Source: Planctomycetota bacterium (GTDB lineage Bacteria; Planctomycetota; PLA2; JAEUHO01). From it: 64,000 bases of DNA. Each line of letters begins with the position of its first letter. Within the stretch, counting starts at the first letter, position 1. The notes beneath the pieces are model-generated. The model was not told the origin of the DNA, did no database searches, and was given only the letters and a program-made list of their open reading frames with translations. A program made the position numbers and the translations under genes. Shown piece after piece: positions 12,201 to 30,495 of this stretch. The stretch is taken from assembly GCA_965222115.1 (NCBI GenBank), contig CBDCTJ010000007.1:1664001-1728000 (forward strand). Reading direction: 5' to 3'.

Positions 12201-12217
12201 AGCGCCCGTTCTGCTTC

Positions 12218-12246: not shown

Positions 12247-12251
12247 GGGAT

Positions 12252-13712: not shown

Positions 13713-15256
13713 TGCACCAACGTTTTTTGGTCGTTGATTTTGGAAGTCAATACGCCCAGTTGATCGCCCGACGTGTGCGAGAACTTCGTTGCCTTGCTGA
13801 GATCGTCATGCCATCCAACCTCGCGGAAGCCATGGCATCCGACGATGTGCAGGGTGTCATCTTCTCGGGAAGTCCTTGGAGTGCCTACGCCAAGGAAGCG
13901 CCCAGGGTTCCGGTCGATGTGTTCGATCGCGGAAAGCCCATTTTGGGTATTTGCTATGGCATGCAGCTAACGACGCACCTCTTGGGCGGCAAAGTGGCCG
14001 GTGCGCAGTCGCGCGAATATGGCCCCGCCTCCATCACGATCACAAACGGCAGCGATCCACTGTTCGAAGGGCTGGGCTCGACCATGGATGTGTGGATGAG
14101 TCACGGCGATCGCGTAGAGACGCTTCCTGAGGGATTCATGCCGCTCGCATCCACCGACAATGCGCCGCAAGCCGCGTGCCGTCACAACGATCGACCCATC
14201 TACGGCGTTCAGTTTCATCCCGAAGTTACCCACACCCCCCGTGGCACCGAGTTGTTGCGCAACTTCTTGTTTGGCGTTTGCGGTGCGAAGGGCGACTGGA
14301 CCATGAAGTCCTACGTCGAGGAGGCCACGGCGGCCATCCGCGAGAAGGTCGCGAGTGATGAGCAGGTCATTTGTGGACTCAGTGGTGGCGTTGACTCGAC
14401 GGTGGCGGCCGTGCTGATTCATCGAGCCATTGGCGATCGATTGACGTGCATCTTTGTTGACAATGGCATGTTGCGTAAGGGTGAGGCCGACGAAGTCGTC
14501 GAGGCATTTCGCGGCAAGTACAAGATTCCGCTACGCCATATCGATGCGCGATCGCGATTCTTAGATCAACTCAAGGATGTCGAGGATCCCGAGGTCAAAC
14601 GCAAGCGCATTGGCCACGTATTTGTAGATGTCTTTGCCGACGAAGCGAAAACAGTCGAGAATGCGGCGTGGTTGGCACAGGGCACGCTCTATCCCGATGT
14701 GATTGAAAGTCAGAGCGCATTCGGTGGTGCCAGCCAAACGATCAAGACGCATCACAATGTGGGCGGGCTGCCCGAGAAGCTCGGATTCAAATTACTGGAA
14801 CCCTTCCGGGATCTCTTCAAGGATGAAGTCCGCGAGATTGGTCGTGAGCTCGGCGTGCCCGACTTGTTTGTCGAGCGTCAGCCGTTTCCGGGTCCGGGTC
14901 TCGCGGTACGCATTACGGGTGACGTCAGTGAGCCGCGTTTGGCCATACTGCGTGAAGCCGATGCCATCGTTCGCGAAGAGATTGAAGCCGAAGAACTCCA
15001 CAAAGACCTCTGGCAGTACTTCGCCGTTTTGCTGCCGATCAACACCGTCGGCGTGATGGGCGACGAGCGAACCTACGAGCACGTGATTGCAGTACGCGCG
15101 GTTACCAGCGTGGATGCAATGACTGCGGATTGGGCCGACTTACCTCGCGGAACGCTTGCACGCATGAGCAATCGCATTATCAACGAGGTGCGTGGTGTGA
15201 ATCGCGTGGTCTACGACATCAGTACCAAGCCGCCGTCCACCATTGAGTGGGAATGA
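13712..15256 (+). CDS. guaA: GMP synthase (glutamine-hydrolysing)
   Basis: [63 protein letters not shown] 13712 overlaps the guaB TAA. Confidence 0.98.
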
Positions 15257-16221
15257 CGCACATGCGCGGGCGTGCCGTCACGCTGGCTGACATTGAGTCT
15301 GCCGCCGAGCGAATCGCGGGTTTCGCGTTGAAGACACCATTCGTGCGACTCGGTGCACTCGATGGCCGCGTTTATCTAAAGTGCGAAAACCTGCAGCACG
15401 TAGGTGCATTCAAGTATCGCGGCGCTACCAATGCCGTGCAGCGCTTGAGCAACGAGGATGCAGCGCGCGGCGTATTGACTCACAGTTCCGGAAATCACGC
15501 GCAGGCACTGGCCTTGGCGGCGAAGAAGCGCGACATTCACGCCTGGATTGTGATGCCGGAAAACGCTCCTGAGATCAAACGCGCAGGTGTGATTCGCTAT
15601 GGAGGCGAAGTCATCTCGTGCGAGTCCACCGTGGAAGCGCGTGAGCAAACGGCCCGTGAACTGTTGGCGAAGACGGGCGCTGTGTTCATCCACCCCTACG
15701 ACAATGACGCGATCATTGCGGGGCAGGGAACAACAGCGCTTGAGATGTTGGATCAAGCAAGCGCGTTGGGAGAGCAGCTCGATGCCGTGCTGGTTCCCGT
15801 TGGTGGTGGGGGACTCGCCAGTGGCGTGTCGACTGCTCTCAAAGAACGAGCACCACGTATCGACATATGGGGCGTGGAGCCCGAAGGCGCCGACGACGCG
15901 CGTCGCACGTTAGAACAGGAACGCATTGTCCCCGTAACCGAGTTGCCCGGCGGCAGTGCCAACACCATCTGCGACGGGCTGCGAACGAGCCTCTGCTCGC
16001 GCACCTTTCGTATTCTTCGCGAGAACCTGAGCGGCATTCTGACCGTGTCGGATAGTACCGTTCGATCCGCTATGGACCTACTGCTCGATGCAAACGACTT
16101 GACTGTGGAGCCTTCTGGTGCCGTGTGTGTGGCCGCGCTCATAGAGCACAGCGATCGTTTCAAGGATCGATGCGTGGCGGTGGTGTTGAGTGGGGGGAAT
16201 GTGGCGCCGAAATCAGGCTAG
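15253..16221 (+). CDS. PLP-dependent threonine/serine dehydratase or serine racemase family enzyme
   Basis: [43 protein letters not shown]. No ACT regulatory domain. Confidence 0.9.
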
Positions 16222-17622
16222 CTAGCCGCCGCCATTGTCTTCCACGCCCACCCGATCCTTCCCCTCGCGCTTGGCGTGCGAGAGGGCGCGGTCGGTGCGT
16301 CGAAGGACGGTGTCGAGTTCGTGGAGTTCGGAGGGATCAAAGGATGCGACGCCTGCGCTCACCGTGCATGTGAGTTCCTCGCCGCGGTAGTCGAGTACGC
16401 TGCTTCGCACGGCGCGTCGAACGCGGTTGGCGGCCGCTTGTGCTTCTTCGAGACCAATGCCGGGTGTGATGACCAAAAACTCATCGCCGCCGATGCGTCC
16501 TACGATGTCTTGGCCGCGCACGGACTGTTCGAGAACGTCGGCGATGTGACGCAGAAGCGCGTCGCCCGCGTCGTGGCCCATGGAGTCGTTGACGCGCTTG
16601 AAGTAGTCGCAATCGAGCAGAATGGCCGACGCGCGCGCGCCGCGGATACGACTGAGTCCGTCGGCCAATGACGAAAGTTCCTGTTCCAACCCGCGACGAT
16701 TCAGTTTGCCGGTCAGTGCGTCGTGGCGTGACTCGCGACGCAGGGCGTCGGCTCGCTTCATAAGTTCACGGCGCGCGCCGCGCTCGCGAGTAATGTCTAC
16801 GGCGAGCGCACCGACCTGTGAGACGTCGCCGGACTCGTTTTCGATGGGAAACGTGCGAATGCTCATCCAACGCGCACCGGTGTGGTCACGAAGTTCGACT
16901 TCGACGGTGGTTGGCATGGCATCAAATGCGCGTTGAAAGGCCCGCAGCACGGTGCCGCGATCCAGTTCCGTGATGCGGTCGTAGAATTGGGCGGCATCTT
17001 CGTATAACGATTCGCGCTTGACGCCCCACGTGTCTTCAAATTGCTGATTGGCGTAGTGAAACGTGCCCGTTTGGCGGTCGCATACGACCACTACCTCGTT
17101 CATCTGTTCGGCGAGCTCTCGAAACGCTTGTCCCCGTGCGGCCAAGAGAGCGTGGCCCAGCGGTGAGGGAGAAATGAACGAGACCATGAGTAGCGCGGCG
17201 GGTCGGCCTTTGGTTCGTTCCTGTCCGGGAAACGAACGAATGAGCATGCCTTCGCCCTCTTCGCACTCGAGAATGGCGTCGATCACATCATCGGAGGCAA
17301 GGGAACGTCTCACGGCGCGCGCACAGCTCGTTCCACGGAGTCCGAGACCGAGTTCGTCCAACACACCGCCAACATGTTTGGGTCGCAGTCCGAGCAACTT
17401 GCTTGCGCCCGCGGTGAAGTTCAATACGCGGCATGCGCCGTCGAGTGACACCAACGCCAATCCCGAGACGTGCAATGCGTCGGACCACGAAACGTGAGCC
17501 TCGGTCTCGCGCCGCTCCCGATGCTTGAGACGGCGCACAAGTGCGCGCAGGCGTGCATTTTCATCGCGCAGTCGCTGCGTTTCAGATTGCGACGGGGATT
17601 GAGGTGGTTGGGAGGCGTTCAC
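16222..17622 (-). CDS. PAS-PAS diguanylate cyclase
   Basis: HDALTGKLNRR, DCDYFKRVNDSMGHDAGD, I-site RGQD and intact GGDEF. An N-terminal coiled coil and two PAS-like segments precede it. Confidence 0.92.
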   Translation of the reverse strand: MNASQPPQSPSQSETQRLRDENARLRALVRRLKHRERRETEAHVSWSDALHVSGLALVSLDGACRVLNFTAGASKLLGLRPKHVGGVLDELGLGLRGTSCARAVRRSLASDDVIDAILECEEGEGMLIRSFPGQERTKGRPAALLMVSFISPSPLGHALLAARGQAFRELAEQMNEVVVVCDRQTGTFHYANQQFEDTWGVKRESLYEDAAQFYDRITELDRGTVLRAFQRAFDAMPTTVEVELRDHTGARWMSIRTFPIENESGDVSQVGALAVDITRERGARRELMKRADALRRESRHDALTGKLNRRGLEQELSSLADGLSRIRGARASAILLDCDYFKRVNDSMGHDAGDALLRHIADVLEQSVRGQDIVGRIGGDEFLVITPGIGLEEAQAAANRVRRAVRSSVLDYRGEELTCTVSAGVASFDPSELHELDTVLRRTDRALSHAKREGKDRVGVEDNGGG

Positions 17623-17669
17623 TGCCCAAGGTTACACAGACCCCGCGGCGGCTCAATCCCCGCGACCCC

Positions 17670-18239
17670 TCAATCTCCGCGAACGGTGCGCTCGGGGGGT
17701 CGAATAAATGCGTCGCGGTAGTACTGCAATTCGGCCAATGACTCTCGAATGTCGGCGAGGGCTTCATGACTGCCCGCCTTTTTAGGCGGGTCATAGGCGT
17801 GGGGGTACCAACGCCGTAACAACTCCTTCATGGTCGAGACATCGACGTTTCGATAGTGAAGCCAGTCGTGTACATCGCGCATATGGCGATAGAGAAACTG
17901 GCGATCGGTATGAATGGAGTTGCCGCAAAGTGGCGCCGTGCGTTTCGTGCAGTGGCGTTTGATGAATTTGAGCGTCTGCGTCTCGGCGTCGGCCAACAAT
18001 ACGTTGGAGGCACGCACGCGATCCAGGAGCCCTGACTCCCCGAAATGCTCGGCACTCCAATCGGACAGCGATTCAAGCTCGTTTTCGGAGTTGTGAATGA
18101 CCAGACATGGCCCCTCTTCAATCGGTCGAAGCTGGCTGTCCGTAATCAGTGTGGCGATCTCGAGAATGAAGCAGCGATCCGGGTCGAGCCCGGTCATCTC
18201 CAGGTCGATCCAAACTAGTTTGTCGTCGGTGCGGGGCAT
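17670..18239 (-). CDS. orn: oligoribonuclease
   Basis: LVWIDLEMTGLD, PLCGNSIHTDRQFL, HYRNVDVST, HEALADIRESLAEL. The true start is MPRTDDK at 18239. Confidence 0.97.
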   Translation of the reverse strand: MPRTDDKLVWIDLEMTGLDPDRCFILEIATLITDSQLRPIEEGPCLVIHNSENELESLSDWSAEHFGESGLLDRVRASNVLLADAETQTLKFIKRHCTKRTAPLCGNSIHTDRQFLYRHMRDVHDWLHYRNVDVSTMKELLRRWYPHAYDPPKKAGSHEALADIRESLAELQYYRDAFIRPPERTVRGD

Positions 18240-18387
18240 GGGGGGAGGGTAGGGGCGACTGTGGGCCTGTAAAAGCAAAGTCGCAACGACGGCGACGTGC
18301 ACTTCTCTTCGAGGCTCGCGAGGCCTTGCACTGGCTTTGCAGGGAGGTGAGAATCCGCATCTCTGGTGAGATGTTGGAGACGCCGAC

Positions 18388-21300
18388 GTGAGTGATCGAT
18401 TTTCTGTGGACTTCGAGGGCAAGACGCTTGAAGGCGAGTATGGCAAATACCGTGTGATCGAGAAGATCGACGAAGGCGGCATGGGGAGCGTCTACAGCGG
18501 AAGGAACCTCAACCTCAAAACGAAGGTTGTGATCAAGGTGCCCCACACACGTTTTTTGGGCGAGCCGGGGTTTCGAGATCGTTTCGCGCGTGAGATTGAA
18601 CGGCTCATCGGATTGTCCCATCCCCATATCTGTCGAATCCAGGCGCGCGGCGAGCACGACGGCGTACCCTTTTTCATTCTCGACTTTCTTGCGGGTGGGT
18701 CGCTCGATCACAAATTCAAGCGCGCCGCGGTTGGTGGACCGAAGCAAACGATGGAAGAAATCCTCGACTGGTTTCCAAAGATTGCCGAGACCCTTGACTT
18801 TATTCATAAACGCGGTGTTGTGCACCGTGATGTCAAGCCAGGGAATATTCTCTTTGATGATTTTGAAAACGTGTACTTGAGCGACTTTGGTATCGCCAAG
18901 GCCGTGGGCGAAGAAGTTCAAGAAACGTCGTTGACGGCAACCGGCGGTGGTATTGGTTCACCGCTCTACATGTCACCCGAGCAAGGACTTGGACGCGCCA
19001 TGGAGGGACAGTCCGACCAGTATGCGCTCGCGGCAACTGTGTATCAGGCCTTGAGTGGCAAGCCGCCCTTTAGCAAGGGCACGGCGATGGAACTCATCAT
19101 TCAAAAGGCGCAACAGATACCCCCGGCGCTCAGTCGAATCGCACCGCAAGTTCCGGAGGCTGTGTCGGACGTTGTCATGCGCGCACTCTCCGTCGCACCT
19201 CAGGAGCGGTTTGCATCATGCAGAGACTTTGTTGCCGCCTATCAAGACGCCATGCGGCTGGCGCAAACGCAGCAGCCCACGCGGCCTGTCACGCCGGTAC
19301 ATCAAACCGGCCATACAAGTCGGAACCATCCTCCACAGGTGTCGCCCGCTGCGTTCGACCATGGTGGGGCCCCGCGTCGCCGACGCGATCCCACGCGTGA
19401 ACATGTCGTGCCCGCCGCGACGCGGCCCGCAAGGCATGGCGCCTACGATCGACCGCCATCGAAACGCGTCCCAAGGCGTCCCACCAGGGAATCGCGCGAC
19501 AACGCAAAGTCGATGGCCATCCTTGGATGGGGAATTGCTGCGCTGCTGCTGATGGGCGTGCTGTTCTTTGTCCTTCAGAACAAGGACAACGATACAGGCA
19601 CGCAAGCGGCTAACGCCGGGAAGGAAGGCCGCGCTTCAAACCGGAAGAACAATGCATCGGACGGCACATCAGGCAAGCGTTCTACAACGAGCAAGACGCA
19701 GCCTGAGAAGAATCGTGTGTTCAAGGCGCACGACGTAACCCCGCCAACGCTACACGTTAGTGAGCCTGCTCTAAATAGGCAGCGATTGAATAGCCGCTAC
19801 TTTTCCATCAAGGGGAGGGCACTTGACGGGGGTGCTGGCAGCTCGGGGTTGGCACGAGTTACGTTCGTGCTCAAGAATGCGAAGGAGGGCGGCGAGCCCG
19901 GCGTCGTTACCGAGAAAGTCCTTCGAGACGATGGCACGTTTACTGCGAAGGGCGGACTGTTCTCCCACGGAGCCTATAGGCTCATCGTGACAGCCATCGA
20001 TAAGCAGGGTCTCGAAGCGACGGCCACGCGTCATCTCGAGTGGCTTCCACCGAAACCGTGGGAGCAACATCTAGCCGCTGCAAAGCGTGCATTCGCAGGC
20101 GGTGACTTGACGAGCGTCAAGGAGGCGTTGGCGCGGGCGCGCAAGCATGGCGTACGCGAACGAGACATTCCGAAGAATATTGTTGAGGCCATTAAGAAAT
20201 CGGAGAAGTTGCCCGACTGGTCGCTCACTGCGCCTCAGCCCAATCAGGCCATTACTGGAAAGAAGCTCGTCGTGAGTGGCTCCTTTCAAGCCACGCGAGA
20301 GGGCGATCATCTGCGTGTCACCTTTGATGGCACCACGGAGACGGCGCGGGTGGATGAGGACGGCAACTTTATGGTCGCCTTTCTTGTGCCCAACTCGCCC
20401 GGCACGCATCGCATCATGCTGCGAGCGTTCGATGCTAACGGCAGTCCGCGAGGCGAGCCACGGTGGCGCAATGTTGACGTGAAAGTAGACGCAGCGTCGC
20501 TGCGCGCCAAGCAGCTCAAGGCGTACAACGCACCGGCCATCCACAAGACCGGCATCGAAGGATTGGATTTCGTGTTCATTCCCGCGGGCACGTTTAGGAG
20601 GAAAGGGGAGACGATTACGATTTCTACACCGTTCTATATGGCGACGCACGAACTCACGAATAGCCAGTTCAATGCACGTCGCGATTCATCGGGACGTCGT
20701 GGCCGGCGCGAAAGCGGTGAGATACTCACCAAGCGAGATCTAAGCAGTCGAAATCAACCCGTCGTGGGCTTGCGCTACATCGACATGATGGGCAGCCGTA
20801 AGAAGGGTCTGAAGGGGTATGTGGGGTGGCTCAATGAGCGGGGCCGTCAGCACACAATGCGGGGACGCTACGATCTGCCGACCGAAGCCGAGTGGGAATA
20901 CGCGTGTCGCGCCGGCACGTCGGGCCAGCACTATTGGTCGGGCGGGAAACAGGTCGGTCATAAGTGGGCCAATGCAGCGGATCCTGCCTTGCTCAAGGCG
21001 TGGCGTGAGCTCAAAAAGTCGATTACCGGTTGGGACGCGCCGGACGGATACAAGGTGACGGCGCCCGTAGGTCAGTATCCTCCCAATCCGTGGGGCCTAT
21101 ACGACATGCTGGGCAATGCCGCGGAGTGGTGCAAGGACTGGTACAGCCCAAGCTACATGGCGGGTCAACGTGTGGATCCCCACGGACCTGATGCGGGGGC
21201 CGAACGCGTTACGCGGGGCGGCTCGTGGAGTGATGGGTTTATCTACGTCAATTGTACGGCGCGACGTGCGATGCCGATGGACTACAAAGAATTCGATCCC

Positions 21301-21423
21301 AAGTCAAGGCCGTCTGAGTCGTATCTTCGCGCCTATCGCATAAAGGAGCGTTTACGTTTTCAAAAGATCGGCGTGCGCCTCGTATTCCGCCCCGAGCATT
21401 TTCAGCGCTGGGAGCCCAAGTAG
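18388..21423 (+). CDS. membrane Ser/Thr kinase with extracytoplasmic Ig-like and FGE-sulfatase (SUMF1) domains
   Basis: EGGMG, VVIK, HRDVKPGN, DFG, SPE, then TM ILGWGIAALLLMGVLFFVL. The C-terminus has LPTEAEWEYACRAG, PNPWGLYDMLGNAAEW and RGGSW. Confidence 0.92.
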   Translation: MSDRFSVDFEGKTLEGEYGKYRVIEKIDEGGMGSVYSGRNLNLKTKVVIKVPHTRFLGEPGFRDRFAREIERLIGLSHPHICRIQARGEHDGVPFFILDFLAGGSLDHKFKRAAVGGPKQTMEEILDWFPKIAETLDFIHKRGVVHRDVKPGNILFDDFENVYLSDFGIAKAVGEEVQETSLTATGGGIGSPLYMSPEQGLGRAMEGQSDQYALAATVYQALSGKPPFSKGTAMELIIQKAQQIPPALSRIAPQVPEAVSDVVMRALSVAPQERFASCRDFVAAYQDAMRLAQTQQPTRPVTPVHQTGHTSRNHPPQVSPAAFDHGGAPRRRRDPTREHVVPAATRPARHGAYDRPPSKRVPRRPTRESRDNAKSMAILGWGIAALLLMGVLFFVLQNKDNDTGTQAANAGKEGRASNRKNNASDGTSGKRSTTSKTQPEKNRVFKAHDVTPPTLHVSEPALNRQRLNSRYFSIKGRALDGGAGSSGLARVTFVLKNAKEGGEPGVVTEKVLRDDGTFTAKGGLFSHGAYRLIVTAIDKQGLEATATRHLEWLPPKPWEQHLAAAKRAFAGGDLTSVKEALARARKHGVRERDIPKNIVEAIKKSEKLPDWSLTAPQPNQAITGKKLVVSGSFQATREGDHLRVTFDGTTETARVDEDGNFMVAFLVPNSPGTHRIMLRAFDANGSPRGEPRWRNVDVKVDAASLRAKQLKAYNAPAIHKTGIEGLDFVFIPAGTFRRKGETITISTPFYMATHELTNSQFNARRDSSGRRGRRESGEILTKRDLSSRNQPVVGLRYIDMMGSRKKGLKGYVGWLNERGRQHTMRGRYDLPTEAEWEYACRAGTSGQHYWSGGKQVGHKWANAADPALLKAWRELKKSITGWDAPDGYKVTAPVGQYPPNPWGLYDMLGNAAEWCKDWYSPSYMAGQRVDPHGPDAGAERVTRGGSWSDGFIYVNCTARRAMPMDYKEFDPKSRPSESYLRAYRIKERLRFQKIGVRLVFRPEHFQRWEPK

Positions 21424-21443: not shown

Positions 21444-24005
21444 CTACTCGGGCGTCCAGTGATCCACCGCCATGTCGAGCACATAAAGTGCGTCTTTGAG
21501 CCTGAGCACGCCTTCGACTTCGTCTTCTGAGAACTGGAGTGCTGGGTGGCGCTTGAGTTCCGGGTGACGCTTAAGTTCTCTGCGTTCAAACCGCATGCGC
21601 TTTGCTAGGCCATCGAAGAACTCGGGGTATAGATTGCGAAAGCGAAGGCGCACGCGGACTCGACGACCGTCGCGAAGATCGCCGCCGATTCTGACCGGGA
21701 TTTGATAGCGACCGACATTGCCAGGCAGGAGCGGCTCTACACGGTCGGGGAATCCCGCCTCAACGGCCTTCTTGCCTTTGAGAACCGCCGCAACTTCATT
21801 CTGAATCACGGGCTCAAGTTCACCCGATTCATCGCCTTGCGGGCCCGCGAACAACACCGCTTGCAAGTTCTTAAGTCGCCCGGCGGCGCCTTCCTCCTGT
21901 TTGCGAAGTGACTCGGCCCCTTGAACCGGCCCGCCGTGTCGATTGCCGCCGGCCAAAATCTTGAATGCACCGCTGCCGGGCTCGGTCTCGATCGCCACCT
22001 CAAGCCACATTTCACGTGCGAATGCGAAGCCCGCCGGAAGTTTATGACCCGTCGCCAAGTTGATGATCTCCACGTTGACGACATGCTTGTCGCCCTCAGT
22101 GCCATTGGCATCTTTCTTGACGTCTACGACACGTACAGCCGCGGCAATCTTCATTAAGTTGGTTGTCAGTCGCTTCATCTCCTCGCGAATGCGTCTGTTT
22201 TCATCGTGCCGTGGGTGGCCCGCAGGCCACGGACGATCATGGGTCAATGGATAATCAACGCCGACAAACGTGTGGAGGTGTTTTCGGCGTGGAATGAGAG
22301 GCGCATCAAATTGTTCGCCCTCCGGTTCATTGGCCGCGTGAGGATCGCCTTCGCTTTCGTCGATTAGCGTGTCTACATTCTGTAGCACAAGTGCTTTCAC
22401 CCGCTCGAAGCGTTCGCGCAACGGCATGCGTGCGGCCTGCATCTTCTCGACTTCCACTACGATGGGGCTGAGTTCTCGCCCATGACAATCAAGGCAGCGA
22501 ACGCTAACTTCGCCTTGAGACGTCTTTACCTTCGCCCATGTAAAGAGCGGTTGGCCATTCTGATTCTTCTTATTGCCGTCCTGCCATTCTCGGAAAGTGT
22601 CTTGCAATGTGATGCGCTTAGGAAATTTTGGATTTTCCTCACTAGGTACGTGTGGGATGTCGGCGGCCACGGTATGGCAACTGGCGCAAAAATGATCGGT
22701 GTCGAAGTGCGCTCCGTAACGTCCTTCGTGAAAGCTGTTTCCCACCGAAGGCATCTCACCGTCGGCGCCGAAGGGTCCATACATGCCGCGTCCGGGTCGC
22801 AGCGTGATGTTCTCAATGTTTCGGAGTCGAATTTCGCCGCCCTTGCTCGCCTTCCCGGCGGGATCCGCGTGTTCCGAAATGGAGTCGATCTGATGGCACG
22901 TCGTGCAACTCACACCACCGCGTCCGGCGGGGGCGCGATCTTCAAACAGCGCCAGCGGGTGCTCCACATCATCCAAGAGTTCCGTGTGGGCACCGGTAGG
23001 CGAGTGGCAGCGCACACAAAGATCCCCGACAATGGGTTTGGTGTACTTGCCGTCCGCGAGATCGCGATACTCCTTACTCATGACCAAGCGCGTTTGAATA
23101 TCCACCGTGGGCGCCGACTGTGCCATGGAGTGCATCGAGGCTTCCCACTCCTCAAATTGTGCCTTATGGCAGGGCAAGCAACTCATGGGATCGTGAAAGT
23201 CGTGCGGCGTGGGTTTGTTGAATGCGTAGTGGGCTTCCGTGGAATCCCATATATGAAAGCCCATAGCCGCCGTGAACAGAATGGCAATCGGTACGTGAAG
23301 CCAAATCCATACGCGCAGCAGAGCCTTGTACTTTCGTTGTTTCACTATGCGCGAATCGAGCACGTGCAACTCAGCCACACGTTCCTTGATCGTATTCCAC
23401 GCTTCCTCTTCGCCGGGCGGTACGGCGCCTACAGGTGCCTTCTTGTTCGCCAAGAGCGTTTTGGTTCGTGCAAGTAGTTCTTCACTTCGTCCCGCCTGCA
23501 ACTCCACCAACTCGCGTTCGATGTCGGCGCGGCGGTTTTCGCTGAACTCAACCGCCAAGTTGCCCACCGCGGGTTGAGAAACCAACGGCGGAATACTCAA
23601 ATAGAACCCGTAACCCACCAAGCCCGTAATGACCGTTGCCAGAAGCAAAATGAGCGTGAGTGCACCGAGCGTGTTGTCGAAGTGAAAGCCCGCGTGCAGA
23701 AGGATGAGCCAGGTGGCGGCCAAGCTAATCCATACGTGAAGTCGCAGCCACGTTTGAAGGCGCCCGGGCAAGTATTCCTGCCCCCAACGTTTGCGCCACG
23801 TGTAGAGGAAGGCGAACAGTAGTCCGATGCCACCCGCAATGCCCGTAATCCATCCAAAGAGCGTGTAGCCGCGTGCGGGTTGCGGGTGCTCGCCGCCCGT
23901 GAGATTGCGATAGAGGAAGTAGAGCAGCACACTGCCCGTGCCCACGAGAGTAAAGCTCAGCAGATGAAAATGCCGCGCGCGTTTGGGTCGTGCGTACTTG
24001 GCCAT
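21444..24005 (-). CDS. membrane protein with His-bearing TM helices fused to a pentaheme c-type cytochrome
   Basis: Five TM segments with His pairs (WLRLHVW...LLHAGF; WLHVP...GFHIW) and five CxxCH motifs (CLPCH, CVRCH, CTTCH, CASCH, CLDCH). NLATGHKLPAG is typical of multiheme C-domains. Start MAKYAR at 24005, 2 nt after the upstream stop. Confidence 0.85.
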   Translation of the reverse strand: MAKYARPKRARHFHLLSFTLVGTGSVLLYFLYRNLTGGEHPQPARGYTLFGWITGIAGGIGLLFAFLYTWRKRWGQEYLPGRLQTWLRLHVWISLAATWLILLHAGFHFDNTLGALTLILLLATVITGLVGYGFYLSIPPLVSQPAVGNLAVEFSENRRADIERELVELQAGRSEELLARTKTLLANKKAPVGAVPPGEEEAWNTIKERVAELHVLDSRIVKQRKYKALLRVWIWLHVPIAILFTAAMGFHIWDSTEAHYAFNKPTPHDFHDPMSCLPCHKAQFEEWEASMHSMAQSAPTVDIQTRLVMSKEYRDLADGKYTKPIVGDLCVRCHSPTGAHTELLDDVEHPLALFEDRAPAGRGGVSCTTCHQIDSISEHADPAGKASKGGEIRLRNIENITLRPGRGMYGPFGADGEMPSVGNSFHEGRYGAHFDTDHFCASCHTVAADIPHVPSEENPKFPKRITLQDTFREWQDGNKKNQNGQPLFTWAKVKTSQGEVSVRCLDCHGRELSPIVVEVEKMQAARMPLRERFERVKALVLQNVDTLIDESEGDPHAANEPEGEQFDAPLIPRRKHLHTFVGVDYPLTHDRPWPAGHPRHDENRRIREEMKRLTTNLMKIAAAVRVVDVKKDANGTEGDKHVVNVEIINLATGHKLPAGFAFAREMWLEVAIETEPGSGAFKILAGGNRHGGPVQGAESLRKQEEGAAGRLKNLQAVLFAGPQGDESGELEPVIQNEVAAVLKGKKAVEAGFPDRVEPLLPGNVGRYQIPVRIGGDLRDGRRVRVRLRFRNLYPEFFDGLAKRMRFERRELKRHPELKRHPALQFSEDEVEGVLRLKDALYVLDMAVDHWTPE

Positions 24006-24007
24006 GG

Positions 24008-27000
24008 CTAGCTTTCCCTCCCCATTCCGAAAAGCACAACCGGATCGTCGCGCCGCGCCGCCCCCGTTGGGCATGACCGCACGCAGGCGGGCCCATTGTT
24101 GTAGTCTGCGCAGAGATCGCACTTGACGGCCACGCGCTCGTGATCGTCAAGCGTAACCTTTCCATCATCGCCGATATTGAGCACGCGCTGGAGGGGCTTC
24201 GGTACGAGCCGTTCCAGCAGCGATCGCGAGCGCGGCTTGCGCGCGTACATGAAGATGTTGTCATACGGACAACGCGTTGCGCATCCACCGCAGCCCACGC
24301 AGTTGTCCTCGATGATTCGGATTTCGCCCGTGGGCTCGCGCACAATACCATCGACCGAACAGAACAAGCACATGGGGTCCACGCAGTGGTAACACGAAGC
24401 GGGCACCTGAAACGGACCCTGTTGCAATCCCACATTACTTCGCTCAAGGCGCGGCACGCCATGACGTCGTTCGCAGGCATCCACACAGTTGTTGCAATCG
24501 GTGCAGAGACGCGTGTCGATCACCAGCAGGTCTTTGGCTTGCAACAAACCGGTGCCGCCCGCGTGGCTAAACGAGCCACTTGCGTCGGCCGCATGAGACA
24601 CCGGGGCGCTGGCATCGGGCAACAACGCGTTTAGCAGTCCTGGGAACTTCGAATCGAGACGCGCAATGCGATCGCGTCGAATCGTGTAGACCTCCACGCG
24701 CGTGGCCGCTTCATAGCGCAACAGATCATTGCCACGCGTGCCGGCATCCGGCCCCCCAAATACATCGCCGGGTTTGAGGTAGTTGGCGATGCGTTCGCCA
24801 TCTCGCCATGCGCGTTTTTCTCGCACGTACCCGCGATGCAGTACCGCGAACGTATTGGGTGCCTCAATGGCCTGCAACACGACGCGATCAATGGCGTAGC
24901 GCTCTGCTTGCAGTTCACGGCGCAGGTGTTTGCGTGCACCCTTGGGTAGCCGCAGTTGCCGTTCCAGGCGGCCCAAGATGTGGTCAAGTGAACGGCTTAC
25001 GTAAAGCCCTTCAAGCTGTGCTTGAAAGCCCGGATGATGTTGCTTAATGGACTCAAGGCCGTACTTCGTGAGGCCCAGCACCAGCGTGCGATCACTGGCG
25101 CGCGCGGTCACATCCGAAGCGCGGTCGCTGAGCACTGCGACTTCCGCTACGGTCTGGCCCGGGCCCAGATCCACAAGGCGATGAAACGCATCGTGTGTGG
25201 TTTGCATGCCCACTTGCAGTTCGCCCTGAAGGATGATCCACATGGCGTCTGCGTACTCGCCCTCACGGACCAGCACCTCGCGCTTCCGCAACTGACGACA
25301 ACGTGCAGACGAAGCAAGCAGTAGTAGGCTTGCACGCGGTAGCTTCTTGAACACTGGATGTTTCTGAAGCGTGTCGGCGGCGCGGCCCAAGGTGAGCGTA
25401 CTCGCCATTTGCTTACGCCCGACTTGGAGCGTTAGCACGTCGCCCTCATCGGGTACTTGCTTGAGTTTGTTCCACAAAACAATGCGGCTGCGTCGAATAT
25501 CGGCGGGACACACCGGCACGCAGGCGTGGCACTGGGTGCAGTCACGTACGAAGCGCCTGACTACATCTTGATCGCCGCCAATGCCACCGGCATAGGCATT
25601 GAGCGCCGCGATGGTTACTTCATTGGCATCCGGGAGGGGGCACGCCCGCATACATTCGTGACACCCAATGCACGAATCGAGTTCATCGCGCACGGCAGCG
25701 CCGAGGTCGGCGTCCAGCGGGTTATGACTTGCGGCATCATCTACCACAAAGCGGTTGGCACTGAGCGCCTTGACTGTGCGCGTCGCTGCACCCGAAGGCT
25801 TGTCGGCTTCGAACCGACATACGTTGTCTTGAAATTGAAGCACGTCGCCGTCGTCGAGTCGGGCCGTTTTGTCCTTTGGAATGCGCTTACCGTTCAAACC
25901 CGTGCCGGCAGAACTGTGGTTGGTGATCGTGTATCGATTTTGCTTGCGGCGAATGGTTGCGTGAACCCCGCTGACGGTTTGCAGGGGGAGGACCACGGAG
26001 CAGTCAGCCGTTCGACGGCCAATCACCCAAGGCCCGCGCCCGGTGAGTCGTATGGAACCGAGTTTCTTCTTGATCGATTCACTCAAAGGGACGAGTTGGC
26101 GCTTGGGTTCGCGCGCGCCTTTGAGGTGTTGCGATATCGCGCCTACGCCGGCGCCACGGCGCGCCGTGAGCTCGCACGATCCGGCCTTGACAATGTCACC
26201 ATCGGACAACGTGTAGGTCTGGTAGGGTTCAACCGCCACGCCATTGATGGTTGTCCCGGCCGAACTTTTTTGATCAATCAGTCCGTAGATATTTCCCTTT
26301 CGTCGCAACAAGAAATGAGCCTTGGATACATCCCGCGCGTGCAGCACGACATCATTGGTGGGGCTCCGCCCGGCTCGGACCTCGTCATCCAAAAGTGCAT
26401 ACTTGGCCGGATCGCCGGATTGGGCTTCTTCGAATCGCCACCCCAAGAACCCTGTGGCGACCGTCTCCTGGGCGGCAACATTGTCTTCCACGGCGTCGGC
26501 TTCGACGAAATCGACGTCGTCGGGATCTTCGAGTGCAACGCGAAATTTGTTATGCCCGAGTCGTAGCTCTTGACCCTCAACTAGTCGTTCTGGCTCGTTG
26601 GGCGCAAGACGGCGTCCATCCAACTTGGTCCCATTTTGGCTGCCGAGATCGATGAGTTTGACGACGGGAATGATGCCGTCCACCCGCGCATGAAGGCGCG
26701 ATAGCAAAGGATCATTGATCTGTGCATCGGCCTTGAGCCCGCGACCAATTATGCCGGGTACTGGGACGGCAACGGCGCTCCCCTTGAGAGGCCCGCTCGT
26801 ACCTACAAGATAAAGAAATCCTAAGTCGCTAGCACCGACCGTAGCGGTGGCGGCGTGTCGATCGGCGTGCTCGGGACGCACACCACCGCTTGAGAACACA
26901 AAGGAGGCGTCACCCAGCGTAATCTTGTCGTCGGCATCGAGGCGACAGTGTCCTGTGAGTTTGTTGCTACCGACCTTTGTCTTGCCGTGGCCGCCGCAGT

Positions 27001-28948
27001 CAACGAGGTAGTACGTGCGAGGGGTTCCCCGCGCTTGGATCTGTGCGTGAAAGCGCTCAATGCCGGGATCGTTGAGCACAATGTCATTATCGGGGTCCGC
27101 CCCAATTGTCGTTGTTCCCCGGCCAACGTCATGGGGCGTACCGTCGATGGCATTTACGAGTTGATAGCTCGGTTCGGGTTTCGCTGGTGCCTCGTCGATT
27201 TCGCTCGCGCGCTTGAGTCCCACGAGGATCTTCTGCCGGCCCAACTGAATGACGTCACCGTCCGACAAGATGCCCAATCCACCCAATGGACGACCGTTGA
27301 TAAGCGCCGTGCCCGCGGCTCGCTTGGCGCGCGTGCAAAACCACGCCATGCCTTCGCGCTTAATCAGCAGCCGGTCTACTTCCCGTGCTTCCGGAATGGC
27401 AATGTCACTCGACCCTTTGGGCCCCAAGCGCACCGGTCCTTTGTCAACCGTGTGTGTTTGATCGCCAATCATGAGCTTCAGCGGCGGTGGGGGCAGCGAG
27501 CCGAAGTGTTCCGTTTGGCCCTCCACGGCCTGAGCGCAGTCGCGCTGCGAAACGACATTCGTTGCTTGCGCCATGGCTTGGGGTTTGGCGGCAACCGCCA
27601 TCATGGCGCCTTCGTCATCAAAGCGACGCACGCCATCGGCTTCTTCTTGTGCGGCAATCCATCGAAAGAGATCAAAGTCGGGCTCAAAGAGTCGTTCGGC
27701 AACTGCCTTGACGTTAGCCGCTTCACCACGCAGGTTCATGAGGCGGCGCAACGCCATACCCTCGCGTCGATCGCCGAGCAACATGGCGCCGACGAGTTGT
27801 CCCTTGTGTAGCAGCGCACGTTTGTAGATGGGTCGGCCGCCGTGCCGGTCGCGGTACACAACCGACTCGCATTCATCATCGGGATAGCGCTTGCCGGGAT
27901 CGTGGACCGATGTGCCGACCGTGCCTAGATCAAGATCCCACGCGCGCGTGCCATTGTAGATGGGGCCCGGTCGATATTCGATGGGCGTATCGCCGTCTTC
28001 GCGCGCCATATTAAGACCCGCGATACGACCCTGTCGAACAGCGGGCTGCCAAAGACCCCCCGGATTGTCAAAGGGGAGACTCGCTTCGCGAAAGTGCACG
28101 ATGTCACCCGCGGCATACACGTTTTCCATACCGCCGAGTTGCATCTGTCGATTGACGGTTAGATAGCCGCGTTCCGGCGTGACGGGCGAATCGGCCAACC
28201 ACTCGGTGTTTGGAAGAATGCCGATCGACGTGATGACCAGCGAACACTCAATGAACTCCCCCGACTTGAGTCGCACACCTTTGATACCGCGCCGCGAGCC
28301 TTCGATCTCTTCGGTTTCGGCAGAGAGAAACACACCCACGCCGTCGGCCTGCATGCGCGCGCGAATCAAGTCCCCGGCCGTTTGATCCACGACGCGTTCT
28401 AGCAACCAATCGCCACGATGAACCAACGAGACATCAACATTGCGTGCGTGGAGTCCCTGCGCCGCTTCAATGCCAAGTATGCCGCCGCCGATAACAACGG
28501 CTTTCTTGGCACGCGATGCCCGATCGACAATTTCACGTGTGTCTTGCATCGTGCGCATGGCCATGACACCCGGCAAGTCAGCGCCCTTCACCGCATACTT
28601 TCCCGTAGGTTCGAGTCGTCGCGCGCGCGCACCCGTTGCAATCAACAGGCGGTCGTACTGCATCGCGCCACCGTCATGAAGTTTGAGTTCGTTGGTCTCC
28701 GGGCGAATGCCCGTTGCCCGATCCACGATGCGCTCAAGCCGAAGCGATTCCCACTGCTCCGGGTGAAGCGACCAAAGTTCCTCTTCTTGAATCTCACCCA
28801 TCAAGTAGTTCGTAAGGGCCGCGCGATAGTAGTAGGGCTGCGGGTCGGCCGACACGATGGTGATGCGATCGGAGGGTCGCGTGCCACGTAGCGCTTGGGC
28901 AGCGGACATGCCTGCAGCGCCGTCCCCAACAATGACACATCGACGCAT
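24008..28948 (-). CDS. multidomain FAD/NAD(P)H oxidoreductase - 5x FHA - 2[4Fe-4S] - 2x cNMP-binding - 4-cluster ferredoxin fusion
   Basis: GDGAAG, LLIATG, GGGILGIE and AAGD mark the flavoprotein. Five FHA-like units follow, then CIGCHECMRACP and CTQCHACVPVCP, two CAP-like folds, and CTDCNNCVDAC, CYHCVDPMCLFC, CVGCGGCATRCP, CDLC...ACVRSCP. Confidence 0.88.
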   Translation of the reverse strand: MRRCVIVGDGAAGMSAAQALRGTRPSDRITIVSADPQPYYYRAALTNYLMGEIQEEELWSLHPEQWESLRLERIVDRATGIRPETNELKLHDGGAMQYDRLLIATGARARRLEPTGKYAVKGADLPGVMAMRTMQDTREIVDRASRAKKAVVIGGGILGIEAAQGLHARNVDVSLVHRGDWLLERVVDQTAGDLIRARMQADGVGVFLSAETEEIEGSRRGIKGVRLKSGEFIECSLVITSIGILPNTEWLADSPVTPERGYLTVNRQMQLGGMENVYAAGDIVHFREASLPFDNPGGLWQPAVRQGRIAGLNMAREDGDTPIEYRPGPIYNGTRAWDLDLGTVGTSVHDPGKRYPDDECESVVYRDRHGGRPIYKRALLHKGQLVGAMLLGDRREGMALRRLMNLRGEAANVKAVAERLFEPDFDLFRWIAAQEEADGVRRFDDEGAMMAVAAKPQAMAQATNVVSQRDCAQAVEGQTEHFGSLPPPPLKLMIGDQTHTVDKGPVRLGPKGSSDIAIPEAREVDRLLIKREGMAWFCTRAKRAAGTALINGRPLGGLGILSDGDVIQLGRQKILVGLKRASEIDEAPAKPEPSYQLVNAIDGTPHDVGRGTTTIGADPDNDIVLNDPGIERFHAQIQARGTPRTYYLVDCGGHGKTKVGSNKLTGHCRLDADDKITLGDASFVFSSGGVRPEHADRHAATATVGASDLGFLYLVGTSGPLKGSAVAVPVPGIIGRGLKADAQINDPLLSRLHARVDGIIPVVKLIDLGSQNGTKLDGRRLAPNEPERLVEGQELRLGHNKFRVALEDPDDVDFVEADAVEDNVAAQETVATGFLGWRFEEAQSGDPAKYALLDDEVRAGRSPTNDVVLHARDVSKAHFLLRRKGNIYGLIDQKSSAGTTINGVAVEPYQTYTLSDGDIVKAGSCELTARRGAGVGAISQHLKGAREPKRQLVPLSESIKKKLGSIRLTGRGPWVIGRRTADCSVVLPLQTVSGVHATIRRKQNRYTITNHSSAGTGLNGKRIPKDKTARLDDGDVLQFQDNVCRFEADKPSGAATRTVKALSANRFVVDDAASHNPLDADLGAAVRDELDSCIGCHECMRACPLPDANEVTIAALNAYAGGIGGDQDVVRRFVRDCTQCHACVPVCPADIRRSRIVLWNKLKQVPDEGDVLTLQVGRKQMASTLTLGRAADTLQKHPVFKKLPRASLLLLASSARCRQLRKREVLVREGEYADAMWIILQGELQVGMQTTHDAFHRLVDLGPGQTVAEVAVLSDRASDVTARASDRTLVLGLTKYGLESIKQHHPGFQAQLEGLYVSRSLDHILGRLERQLRLPKGARKHLRRELQAERYAIDRVVLQAIEAPNTFAVLHRGYVREKRAWRDGERIANYLKPGDVFGGPDAGTRGNDLLRYEAATRVEVYTIRRDRIARLDSKFPGLLNALLPDASAPVSHAADASGSFSHAGGTGLLQAKDLLVIDTRLCTDCNNCVDACERRHGVPRLERSNVGLQQGPFQVPASCYHCVDPMCLFCSVDGIVREPTGEIRIIEDNCVGCGGCATRCPYDNIFMYARKPRSRSLLERLVPKPLQRVLNIGDDGKVTLDDHERVAVKCDLCADYNNGPACVRSCPTGAARRDDPVVLFGMGRES

Positions 28949-29115
28949 CTCTTGGTCTCCGGTTTGACGCCTTCACTCCGGTAGGCGCGAATGGCGAAGA
29001 ACCCGCGCCGAGAAGGCCTGCTGCGCCCTTCGCCCGTTTCCTTCGCGCCGGTATGCTACGCGCGCCCGGTTTCCGCGTCCACCCTGTCGTCAACTTGCCG
29101 GTATTGAGGTCAAAC

Positions 29116-30495
29116 GTGCCGTTCGAACTTGTCCTGGAATGCAAGCGTGGACCCAATCAAGGAACGTCGTTCGCGTTTCGCCTCGATGATGAAGTCACGT
29201 TTGGACGCGACGGCGACGCCGACAAGAGCGGTACTCGACCCACCGATCCCGGCATGCATCGTCGGCATGTGGTGTTCTCCCTGTACGGCGGCGAGATTCG
29301 CATGAAGGCCATTCAGGGCGCCAAGAGTCTGCTTGTAAACGGTCGCCCGGCTCGCAAGGCCACACTTGTGAGTGGCGATCGTTTGGTGATCGGTCGCTCC
29401 CATTTGCTCGTTCACCTCACTGAACTGCCTGGAAGCCAAGTTGAGCCCGATCCGAAGGCGGAGCCAGGGGAACCATCCAGCGTGTCCGCTCCGGTAGCTC
29501 CGCCTCCAGACGTATCGCCTCCAGCACCAGCAGCCAGTTCACCTCCTGTGACCTCTCCGCCAACAGCGCCGCCCCGAGTGGCCGAAACACCTCCACCGTC
29601 AAGCACCGGTAGTTTTCAAAGTATCGAAGAACGTCGGCTCGATGATCTGCATCTCGGCGACCAAGTCGGTGTTGGTGCGATGGGACGTGTATTCGAAGCG
29701 TGGGATCCCGACACCAACGAGAAGTTATGCGTCAAGACCATTCGCGCAGCGGGGCCGCGCGCCACCAAAGCCGTTGACATGTTTTGGCGGGAGATCAATC
29801 TGCTTGCGGGCATGGATCATCCCAACATCATTCGCTTTCTTTATGCCGGTGGAGGACGCGCCCAACAGTTCTACGCCATGGAGTGGATTGATGGCCACAC
29901 GCTTGAGCATGAGATCACTACAGGTGGACCACTAAGCCAAACTCAAGCGTGTGCACTTGCGCGACAACTACTCTCGGCGCTGTCCTATGCCCACGCCAAA
30001 GCGACCATTCATCGCGACATCAATCCCCGCAACATCATGCTGCGCGGTCCGCGCGACGCTGCCTTGGCCACACTCATCGACTTCGGGCTTGGCAAGCGCC
30101 TCAAAGGCGAGAGCGGCGGCAGCAACACCATCACCGAGACAGGCGAAATGCGTGGCTCACTGGGCTTTGCTTCCAAGGAGTGCCTGCTCGATGCCAAGCG
30201 CGCCGTGCCCGCAAGCGACCTCTTCAGCGTGTCTGCCACGCTCTACTATGCCTTATCCGGCAAGACCTATTTCCCCGAACGCAAAGACAACCTAAGCATC
30301 TACCAACTCATCGGCGGCGAACACGTCGTCCCTCTAAGCGAACGCGGCATCGACATTCACCCCGCCTTCGAGGCCTGGATCGAACAAGGCCTCGCCACCG
30401 ACCCCTACGCCCGCTGGCCCACCGCCGACGACATGCTGACGGCGTTGCTGCGCGTGGAGTCGGAGATGTTGTTGGCGGGGTTGGAAGAAGACTGA
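29116..30495 (+). CDS. FHA-domain Ser/Thr kinase with Pro-rich linker (atypical motifs)
   Basis: FHA (GPNQG...FGRDG...LVNG...LVSGDRLVIG), a Pro-rich linker, then GVGAMG, CVK, HRDINPRN, DFG and SKE in place of APE. GAGG precedes GTG 29116. Confidence 0.85.
   Translation: MPFELVLECKRGPNQGTSFAFRLDDEVTFGRDGDADKSGTRPTDPGMHRRHVVFSLYGGEIRMKAIQGAKSLLVNGRPARKATLVSGDRLVIGRSHLLVHLTELPGSQVEPDPKAEPGEPSSVSAPVAPPPDVSPPAPAASSPPVTSPPTAPPRVAETPPPSSTGSFQSIEERRLDDLHLGDQVGVGAMGRVFEAWDPDTNEKLCVKTIRAAGPRATKAVDMFWREINLLAGMDHPNIIRFLYAGGGRAQQFYAMEWIDGHTLEHEITTGGPLSQTQACALARQLLSALSYAHAKATIHRDINPRNIMLRGPRDAALATLIDFGLGKRLKGESGGSNTITETGEMRGSLGFASKECLLDAKRAVPASDLFSVSATLYYALSGKTYFPERKDNLSIYQLIGGEHVVPLSERGIDIHPAFEAWIEQGLATDPYARWPTADDMLTALLRVESEMLLAGLEED

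Follow-up and report, generated by a model that had tools for sequence, protein, structure and literature searches.

Do two adjacent genes encode a complete route by which electrons from the cytoplasm could reach the periplasm under the control of signalling domains? The question is raised by a 64,000-nucleotide stretch of a Planctomycetota bacterium genome (contig CBDCTJ010000007.1, positions 1,664,001 to 1,728,000; hereafter the window), in which two consecutive open reading frames (ORFs) on the minus strand, ORF A and ORF B, code for a cytoplasmic flavo-iron-sulfur protein and a membrane protein with a periplasmic multihaem domain. An earlier note on this DNA had proposed that the pair forms a two-gene wire running from NAD(P)H through flavin adenine dinucleotide (FAD), Fe-S clusters and haem b to haem c, with kinase and second-messenger inputs inserted between the redox centres. 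We give a probability of roughly 0.55 to the reading that A and B form one membrane complex wiring cytoplasmic NAD(P)H to the periplasm, with an array of FHA domains as its control element. Gene order, natural fusions, conserved histidine pairs, a complex model and the use of two flavoprotein subfamilies support the proposed wire. As to the inputs, FHA domains are indeed inserted between the redox centres, whereas gating by cyclic nucleotides (cNMP) did not hold up for this copy.

Domain content of ORF A and ORF B

The two genes and their parts are as follows, in window positions.
24008..28948 (-): ORF A, cytoplasmic flavo-iron-sulfur protein of 1646 amino acids (aa), with reductase, five FHA, 2x[4Fe-4S], two cyclic-nucleotide-binding (CNB) folds and 4x[4Fe-4S]
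27737..28942 (-): FAD/NAD(P)H module (A residues 3-404), Pyr_redox_2 plus Rubredoxin_C, NirB/rubredoxin-reductase-like
27224..27415 (-): FHA-like domain 1 (A 512-575), degenerate, with neither GR nor SxxH
26912..27112 (-): FHA2 (A 613-679), degenerate phosphothreonine (pThr) pocket, GA replacing GR and E replacing S
26555..26752 (-): FHA3 (A 733-798), canonical GR, SRLH and NG, residues that are invariant in the family
26180..26377 (-): FHA4 (A 858-923), GR and SKAH
25832..26029 (-): FHA5 (A 974-1039), GR and SGVH
25496..25693 (-): 2x[4Fe-4S] dicluster (A 1086-1151), C1093/1096/1099/1103 and C1137/1140/1143/1147
24614..25351 (-): two cNMP-binding folds (A ~1200-1445), degenerate phosphate-binding cassettes
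24053..24529 (-): four-cluster ferredoxin of HydN/AegA/DsrO/DmsB type (A 1474-1632)
21444..24005 (-): ORF B, 853 aa, membrane protein with two histidine pairs plus putative periplasmic pentahaem cytochrome c
23238..24005 (-): domain with five transmembrane (TM) helices (B residues 1-256), H90/H104 in TM3 and H237/H251 in TM5
22371..23198 (-): helical cap with five CxxCH (B 270-545), of the c552/MccSep pentahaem cytochrome (PHC) type
21447..22208 (-): beta-sandwich stem (B 600-853) with an invariant NLATGH(654)xLPAGF motif

Pfam and NCBIfam comparisons confirmed that a single 1646-aa protein joins all the modules listed for ORF A. The reductase consists of Pyr_redox_2 at residues 3-307 (E 5e-49) and Rubredoxin_C at 346-404 in Pfam, and residues 5-405 match the N terminus of NirB in NCBIfam, far under the equivalog cut-off. 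Its GxGxxG motifs occupy residues 8-13 and 154-159, with G154, G156 and G159 invariant in 27 homologues. Over the whole length, Pfam found FHA in four stretches (E 2.7e-64) and cNMP_binding in two (E 1.9e-19). All 24 Fe-S cysteines, eight in the dicluster and 16 in the C-terminal ferredoxin (C1482/85/88/92, C1519/22/27/30, C1550/53/56/60 and C1610/13/22/26), are invariant in the 27 homologues that align end to end. Within this ferredoxin, generic Fer4 models pass the Pfam cut-off (Fer4 at 1515-1567), Fer4_11 stays below it (24.4 bits versus 26.2), and the AegA/DsrO/HydN-like matches at 1474-1632 are far under their NCBIfam cut-offs.

ORF B begins, as the earlier note had stated, two nucleotides downstream of ORF A. 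The junction reads ...GGGAGGGAAAGC TAG CC ATG..., with the stop codon of A at 24010-24008 and the ATG of B at 24005, leaving a gap of exactly 2 nt. Because this gap is accompanied by a Shine-Dalgarno-like GGGAGG 5' of the ATG, the arrangement suggests that A and B are co-translated. A start of ORF B at GTG 24122, given in the ORF listing, was rejected as an upstream over-extension.

The description of B as a histidine-bearing protein with five TM helices fused to five CxxCH motifs was borne out by the helices of its AlphaFold2 (AF2) model, the motif positions and the invariant histidines. The model (predicted local distance difference test score, pLDDT, 87.5) opens with five long N-terminal helices. 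In alignments of 38 long-form and 27 mixed sequences, H90, H104, H237 and H251 are invariant and form an H-x13-H pair in each of helices 3 and 5; P239 and a cytoplasmic loop, R71-K72-R73...W86, are likewise invariant. This pattern supports a strong inference that ORF B holds two transmembrane b-haems. The positive-inside rule and the helix order of the model place the N terminus in the cytoplasm and the haem c C-terminal domain in the periplasm; H90/H237 would thus form the inner pair and H104/H251 the outer one. Below threshold, the TM domains of 27 family members match DUF4405 (23/27), Ferric_reduct (19/27) and Ni_hydr_CYTB (16/27), all of them dihaem-type families. B homologues are labelled as metagenome-assembled genomes (MAGs) of Planctomycetes, Vicinamibacterales and Polyangiaceae. 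Between TM4 and TM5, residues 152-227 (window ~23325-23552) form a conserved cytoplasmic helical insert, whose G-[RK]-S motif (AGRS at ~171-174) is common to the long and short forms of the family described below and is a candidate phosphosite or docking element.

The CxxCH motifs of ORF B lie at C276, C330, C367, C440 and C504. Because the first of them starts 25 residues past H251, haem 1 is likely to be near the outer histidine pair. The B-family profile matched the pentahaem cytochrome c552 of T. tepidum (5ze8) with E 6.6e-18, and MccA and MccSep more weakly, while Foldseek with the AF2 model of B returned 5ze8 as the sole significant match (E 3e-10, target-normalised TM-score 0.61). The fold of the periplasmic half is the same as that described for the pentahaem family (5ze8 c552; MccSep/ExtKL 9wt8; Gsu2801 and the PHCs of cable bacteria, PMC11976967). 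Such c552/MccSep-type PHCs appear in these accounts as soluble periplasmic proteins, whereas in ORF B the domain is fused to a membrane cytochrome-b-like domain. MccSep is described as consisting of an Ig-like stem and a helical cap with five haems, of which haem 1 is the likely entry and haem 2 is catalytic, ligated by C239 next to U325 (bioRxiv 10.1101/2025.11.18.688581). It shares the GHxxPxG stem motif with ORF B; however, U325 aligns with F660 of B and the haem-2 ligand C239 with the invariant L467/Q468, and the B family has zero conserved cysteines outside its CxxCH motifs. An MccSep-type polysulfide reductase was rejected for ORF B on the basis of these positions. The five haem motifs of the proposed periplasmic haem c part stand, whereas its description as a plain wire does not, since a c552/MccSep-type domain could be catalytic. 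The genome encodes a cytochrome c assembly gene.

The pair as the long form of a large family

Searches with ORF A returned 32 proteins at E<=0.001, about 30 of them homologue clusters with most or all of its architecture. These are 34-48% identical to ORF A and unnamed or generically named. Among 40 related genomes, G014 alone has a full-length long-form homologue (46% identity), with a B homologue directly downstream of it (39% identity over 800 aa). The fusion was also confirmed at the level of single sequencing runs, where Logan contigs span ORF A and both junctions: one of 5432 nt (run X3) covers 23859-29290 and one of 6089 nt (run X1) covers 21444-24274, each with 0 differences; both runs are from a single study, and the source sample may be among them.

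The sequence comparisons place the A-B pair in a large, uncharacterised family, of which it is a rare long form. In the short form, a protein of ~790 aa starts with a YpdA/TrxR-like flavoprotein (Pyr_redox_3 in Pfam), followed by two CNB folds and the four-cluster ferredoxin. Its gene is followed by the gene for the 5-TM protein and then by that for an FHA-bearing cytochrome with 9-10 CxxCH and one or two FHA domains. For the short-form A, at least 4111 of 8000 scored clusters reach E<=0.001; the best 120 of these share the same core, a few being partial or without the reductase, and their only name at NCBI is 'cyclic nucleotide-binding domain-containing protein'. With the TM-domain profile, 5745 representative clusters were matched at E<=0.001, of which 521 reach E<=1e-30. 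No NCBIfam model passed its cut-off for any component, the TM protein having zero matches.

The neighbourhood analysis showed that the two genes travel together. In tblastn, A 1190-1636 and B 20-252 matched adjacent genes, the TM gene lying directly 3' of the CNB-ferredoxin gene, in 38/40 genome_contigs loci that extend 1200 bp or more downstream; the TM gene also followed in 15/17 long-form metagenome loci. The linked loci carry labels of Thermoanaerobaculia/Acidobacteriota, Binatia, Nitrospirota, Syntrophobacteraceae and Methylococcaceae MAGs. Misses in the 40 genome loci were L038, with a weak TM-like ORF (E 3e-4), and L046, an Enterobacteriaceae locus with a generic ferredoxin match; L073 likewise had only a weak TM-like ORF (about 2-3e-4 for L038 and L073 at relaxed E), and tblastn found no TM match in L067. 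A multihaem ORF (at least four CxxCH) lies within 4.5 kb in 35/40 loci, while L004, L008, L015 and L039 have none within the DNA available. Of 37 multihaem ORFs, 36 carry FHA according to a custom FHA hidden Markov model (HMM), the exception being L038. The window has no separate gene for an FHA-1TM-9/10-haem cytochrome; here, FHA is on A and the pentahaem domain is fused to B.

Fusions occur within the family as well. In P0099, L087 and L088, the CNBx2-ferredoxin part and the TM domain form a single polypeptide, and many long-form relatives (P0040-P0056) have an N-terminal FHA on B itself. FHA is thereby found on A in the long form, on B in P0040-P0056 or on the multihaem protein, a distribution that reads as domain shuffling of FHA within the system. 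Furthermore, the reductase fused to the shared core comes from two flavoprotein subfamilies: it is of the Pyr_redox_2/Rubredoxin_C type in the window, but YpdA/TrxR-like Pyr_redox_3 in the short forms. Because these unrelated reductases joined the same core, NAD(P)H turnover looks to be the selected function.

In L068-L072, L074, L075, L080 and L082, the reductase-FHAx3 and 2xFeS-CNB-ferredoxin parts appear in separate frames (tblastn, stop-to-stop frames), which may represent two genes or a frameshift. In the short-form locus L016, the FHA-nonahaem cytochrome gene is followed 3' by genes for an HbpS-like (haem-degrading/sensing) protein (11440-13311), an Ig-like protein (13308-15302) and an LVIVD-repeat cytochrome (15316-18465), which may belong to the outer part of the short-form system.

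Proposed electron path and competing explanations

The structure model of the two-protein complex, built from A 1180-1646, B 1-270 and two haems, docks the ferredoxin of A on the cytoplasmic face of B. It reached an ipSAE of 0.70 (runs 0.72/0.70/0.70) versus 0.00 for the best of three controls, a mark attained by 58/80 solved complexes and 2/110 mismatched pairs, although this calibration is rough, since the prediction was run with custom alignments and with a riding ligand. Between runs, 79% or more of the contacts agree, and partner pLDDT is at least 80. On the A side, the predicted interface surrounds C1482/C1485/C1488 and C1626, with a docking face of 1477-1514 and 1618-1641; on the B side, it consists of residues 72-87, 134-157 and 227-231, covering the invariant loop on the cytoplasmic side and the ends of helices beside H90/H237. 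The docking gains independent support from these interface residues, because they are invariant without another obvious reason.

According to the path that we propose, NAD(P)H would reduce the FAD in the N-terminal reductase of A, and the electrons would pass through the 2x[4Fe-4S] domain to the four-cluster ferredoxin at the C terminus. The ferredoxin would dock at the cytoplasmic RKR loop of B, from where two b-type haems, held by H90/H237 on the inner and H104/H251 on the outer side, would carry the electrons across the membrane. From the outer haem b they would reach haem 1 of the pentahaem domain and then either an acceptor in the periplasm or outside the cell, or a substrate at the haem 2 pocket, which lacks Cys. 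The logic would be that of a bacterial NADPH oxidase (NOX) lengthened by Fe-S clusters and c-haems, and could work without the quinone pool. Phosphorylation by Ser/Thr kinases, sensed by the FHA array, would set whether the reductase couples to the wire. Most likely, then, A-B exports electrons in the manner of a NOX, may do so without quinones, and is regulated through FHA domains and Ser/Thr kinases. We propose more tentatively, at somewhat less than even odds, that it is the prototype of a widespread, so far unrecognised class of signal-gated electron export, a prokaryotic counterpart of the regulated NADPH oxidases, in which a dedicated kinase, ancestrally together with a cyclase and cNMP, switches a quinone-independent wire, FHA acts as a phospho-clutch between flavin and Fe-S clusters, and the membrane subunit represents a cytochrome b family of the dihaem kind that would be new and count thousands of members.

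Several observations weigh against a complex that exports electrons under FHA control. Haem b binding is deduced purely from the histidine spacing. In 27 family members, 0 Pfam dihaem families exceeded the cut-off for the TM domain; Foldseek of the TM model against PDB gave nothing at E<=0.001; and the VIA-align matches, with 7ah0, a designed two-haem bundle, at the top (Z 9.1, root-mean-square deviation (rmsd) 2.4, 103 aligned) and with 4o6y, a cytochrome b561 (Z 8.4, rmsd 3.7, 141 aligned), are in the noise range of helical bundles. An ESM Atlas search with B 1-270 peaked at 0.82, below the meaningful level. Besides the rough calibration of the complex score, the model could owe its pass to likeness with solved complexes of ferredoxin and cytochrome b such as NarHI/FdnHI. 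As for control, FHA1 and FHA2 lack the pThr-binding residues, G014 has no FHA-kinase at the divergent position, and 39/45 short-form loci have no kinase within the fetched flanks. The long form occurs in 2/25 genomes of the window's own family and is therefore dispensable, and no RNA run is listed among the sequencing runs that contain the stretch. A quinone site on ORF B is possible. The outward direction is argued from redox and membrane potentials by textbook reasoning, and the sole paper on a short form proposes inward flow from Fe(II) in its discussion of the cluster (bioRxiv 10.64898/2026.01.22.701106).

The explanation that competes best, although we consider it unlikely, is a quinone-coupled hub, in which the TM domain of B would be a dihaem cytochrome b that reacts with quinone or quinol, in the manner of FdnI, NarI, CybB or the CbcL b-domain. 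In that case, A would be an alternative NAD(P)H:quinone reductase, or the pentahaem domain would be a quinol-to-periplasm outlet, or both, and electrons from A would not pass straight on to the c-haems. Geobacter CbcL is a quinol oxidase with a dihaem b domain and a multihaem c domain, and is not known to have a dedicated cytoplasmic Fe-S/flavin partner. As generally described, CbcL resembles ORF B in having a membrane b-type and a periplasmic multihaem c part in one polypeptide, and this layout of a b-domain fused to a multihaem c domain speaks for the hub, as do the 16/27 TM members with sub-threshold similarity to Ni_hydr_CYTB, the prokaryotic, quinone-reactive cytochrome b561. A quinone is also considered in the preprint's treatment of its cluster (bioRxiv 10.64898/2026.01.22.701106). 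On the other hand, none of these cut-offs is reached by the TM domain, and no quinone-site motif turned up, though none was specifically sought. The strictly conserved cytoplasmic Fe-S partner, predicted beside the inner histidine pair and sometimes fused to the TM domain, is instead a hallmark of transfer through the membrane.

We find it clearly less probable that the wire runs inward, from a periplasmic or extracellular donor such as Fe(II), reduced sulfur or a partner cytochrome through the c-haems to Fe-S/FAD and on to NAD(P)+ or another acceptor. The short form is present in an Fe(II) oxidiser, where it was expressed under all conditions tested and an inward role was put forward in the part of the preprint on this cluster (bioRxiv 10.64898/2026.01.22.701106), and the nearest solved relative, T. 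tepidum c552, is called low-potential in a title cited in PMC11976967. However, inward transfer would oppose the inside-negative membrane potential and, by textbook reasoning, be uphill to NAD(P)+ for most periplasmic donors, and the conserved module is missing an energy-coupling subunit.

Still less probable is a redox sensor, whose haem/Fe-S chain would report the periplasmic redox state to an FHA/CNB scaffold that recruits kinases or cyclases, with electron flux being incidental. The density of signalling domains in A (five FHA and two CNB), the kinases that flank the pair and the FHA-GAF-cyclase and kinase-TPR genes of L016 fit such a role, but it is hard to see why a sensor would require an NAD(P)H/FAD reductase together with six [4Fe-4S], two b-haems and 5-10 c-haems, and the recruitment of two unrelated reductase subfamilies to one core points instead to selection for NAD(P)H turnover. 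Finally, a misassembly or chimeric ORF behind the 1646-aa fusion or the A-B adjacency is barely credible: although the source assembly consists of seven contigs and GC-rich DNA here yields long spurious ORFs such as a false 2530-aa frame in L065, it is refuted for practical purposes by the domain order common to about 30 clusters from independent metagenomes, with the Fe-S cysteines invariant over end-to-end alignments, by the same gene pair in G014 and by the run-level contigs. The frame in question (L065 310-7902), an apparent A-B fusion ORF, was rejected as a GC-rich read-through that is stop-free but in the wrong frame over A.

NOX proteins have histidine pairs 13 residues apart in two helices, and NOX2 and NOX5 are regulated by phosphorylation. 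ORF B shows the same two putative bis-His pairs, H90-x13-H104 and H237-x13-H251. The path proposed here from NAD(P)H and flavin to two stacked bis-His b-haems is likewise that outlined for the NOX/FRD superfamily (NOX, FRE, MsrQ-Fre; PMC3591440). Nevertheless, ORF B is not an FRD/NOX member, because its Ferric_reduct (PF01794) score is 15.8-17.9 bits versus a cut-off of 28. It has five TM helices versus six in FRD, the reductase of A is Pyr_redox_2 versus FNR-type, six [4Fe-4S] are interposed, and the outlet would be through c-haems versus O2 or Fe(III) at the outer b-haem. The Tmc/Hmc complexes of sulfate reducers combine a periplasmic multihaem c, a membrane cytochrome b and cytoplasmic Fe-S without an obligatory quinone. 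As they are usually described, they resemble the arrangement proposed for A-B in this multihaem c/cytochrome b/Fe-S chain, but have a NarI-type cytochrome b and an HdrD-like CCG Fe-S protein, lack an NAD(P)H flavoprotein, FHA and CNB, and run inward from periplasmic H2; Pfam found no match to the NarI family (Nitrate_red_gam) in ORF B.

The earlier note had recognised no characterised system with this architecture, and the literature and NCBIfam comparisons agree: full-text searches, with subscription journals outside their coverage, found none. The closest description is the 'NHC' cluster of Ferrigenium straubiae, a short form, in a descriptive 2026 preprint that leaves its function open (bioRxiv 10.64898/2026.01.22.701106). 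Compared by description, it shares with the short-form loci a cytoplasmic [4Fe-4S] protein, a 5-TM protein that matches nothing in InterPro and a multihaem cytochrome of the inner membrane whose FHA domain is cytosolic. Its 'NHC' section reports FHA with multihaem cytochromes as previously unreported, names no motif in the 5-TM protein, does not recognise that protein as a candidate cytochrome b with histidine pairs, and does not mention FAD or CNB. The window departs from 'NHC' in that the flavo-Fe-S protein carries five FHA and an additional 2x[4Fe-4S] domain, its reductase resembles NirB and not TrxR, and the cytochrome, a pentahaem domain of the c552 type, is joined to the TM protein. Thus, the general kinds are known, namely flavin-to-dihaem transfer in NOX/FRD and the c-b-FeS chain of Tmc/Hmc, while this architecture, the TM family and its signalling decoration are uncharacterised.

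If the proposed export is correct, bacteria possess a route, switched post-translationally, for discharging reducing power from the cytoplasm directly to periplasmic or extracellular acceptors, past the quinone pool. Such a route would matter for extracellular electron transfer, for the way in which soil Acidobacteriota and MAG lineages related to them balance their redox state, and for the cycling of iron and sulfur. It would also assign a function to a very large 5-TM family without a curated family match, explain the presence on multihaem cytochromes of FHA, a domain so far tied to signalling and secretion, and offer bioelectrochemical engineering a compact, switchable two-gene conduit driven by NAD(P)H.

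Candidate signal inputs and neighbouring genes

The FHA array spans ~560 residues between the FAD module and the first Fe-S domain of ORF A. Of the five FHA domains originally proposed, four (FHA2-FHA5) pass the Pfam PF00498 cut-off with E 1e-13 to 1e-17 when segments are scanned singly. The fifth is degenerate: the FHA1 stretch 512-570 is sub-threshold in Pfam (16.4 bits versus 20.7) and was detected at E 5e-9 by a custom HMM built solely from FHA2-5 of the family. FHA domains bind pThr through the Arg of GR and the Ser and His of SxxH. This triad is kept in FHA3, FHA4 and FHA5, and in FHA3 its residues G735, R736, S750 and H753 are invariant across the family.

The CNB pair scores 69.9 bits in Pfam (PF00027, cut-off 27.5) over two stretches. 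The phosphate-binding cassette of CNB folds has the consensus FGE...R[ST]A. In the window, the CNB1 cassette reads VAEVAVLSDRASDVTA and that of CNB2 VFGG...LLRYEAAT, so that neither follows the consensus, and both cassettes are also degenerate in the seven closest long-form relatives. In contrast, all six aligned short-form relatives are canonical, with FGE...RR[ST]AT and FGE...R[TV]AT. Both CNB folds of the window copy have probably lost cyclic-nucleotide binding. Because of the degenerate cassettes, cNMP gating of this copy, which had been part of the original proposal, is doubtful; a cyclase to match it is also absent from the 64-kb window, with four elsewhere in the genome. As we read the alignments, the ancestral short form would keep cNMP binding, with cNMP and pThr jointly controlling the module, and the long form would have enlarged its FHA array while cNMP binding decayed. 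Long and short forms would thus constitute a natural experiment, in which cNMP control was apparently swapped for expanded phospho-control.

Cyclase genes are present in seven short-form loci. In L001, L009, L010, L013 and L016, a gene for an FHA-GAF-adenylate/guanylate cyclase lies immediately 5' of the short-form flavo-CNB-ferredoxin gene, and in L001, L013 and L016 a Ser/Thr kinase follows the cyclase gene, giving a full kinase/cyclase/CNB/FHA signalling set in the cluster. In L016 (2220-6784), the FHA-GAF-nucleotidyl cyclase and kinase-TPR genes are arranged just 5' of the short form in an operon-like manner. In the window, a PAS-GGDEF diguanylate cyclase is encoded at 16222-17622 (-), ~4 kb from ORF B, with no evidence of linkage.

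Two kinase genes flank the pair.
29053..30495 (+): divergent Ser/Thr kinase with a weak N-terminal FHA (Pkinase E 5e-37, HRD and DFG present)
18388..21423 (+): convergent Ser/Thr kinase fused to an FGE-sulfatase-type domain, ending 20 bp from the B stop

Both are candidate regulators of A-B. The divergent FHA-kinase of the earlier note, separated from ORF A by 104 bp, is present as described, but it is not a conserved partner: the divergent gene of G014 is not a homologue of the kinase, and the idea of a fixed third component was dropped. Pkinase matches over cut-off number only 45 in the 4.55-Mb genome, and with four kinases in 64 kb the window has a high local density. Kinases occur near the module in 6/45 short-form loci and, at varying positions, in eight long-form loci: the kinase gene is the next one after B in L065 and L066, while in L067 and L083 it lies at a distance of ~0.8-1.2 kb downstream. 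Over its kinase domain, the convergent kinase of the window has 40% identity to the one that follows B in L065. Its C-terminal FGE-sulfatase domain is SUMF1-like, and in G014 (L064 8787-9782) an FGE-sulfatase-like ORF is divergent from the A homologue, so the domain may travel with the module.

Elsewhere in the window, 40769-45727 (-) encodes a 1652-aa Ser/Thr kinase fused to a very long ankyrin-repeat array. It is accompanied by a 393-aa FHA-kinase (45821-47002, -) and an 854-aa ankyrin protein (38201-40765, +). A 1473-aa tricorn-like protease with PD40 beta-propeller repeats, Tricorn_C1, PDZ and Peptidase_S41 domains is encoded at 58621-63042 (+).

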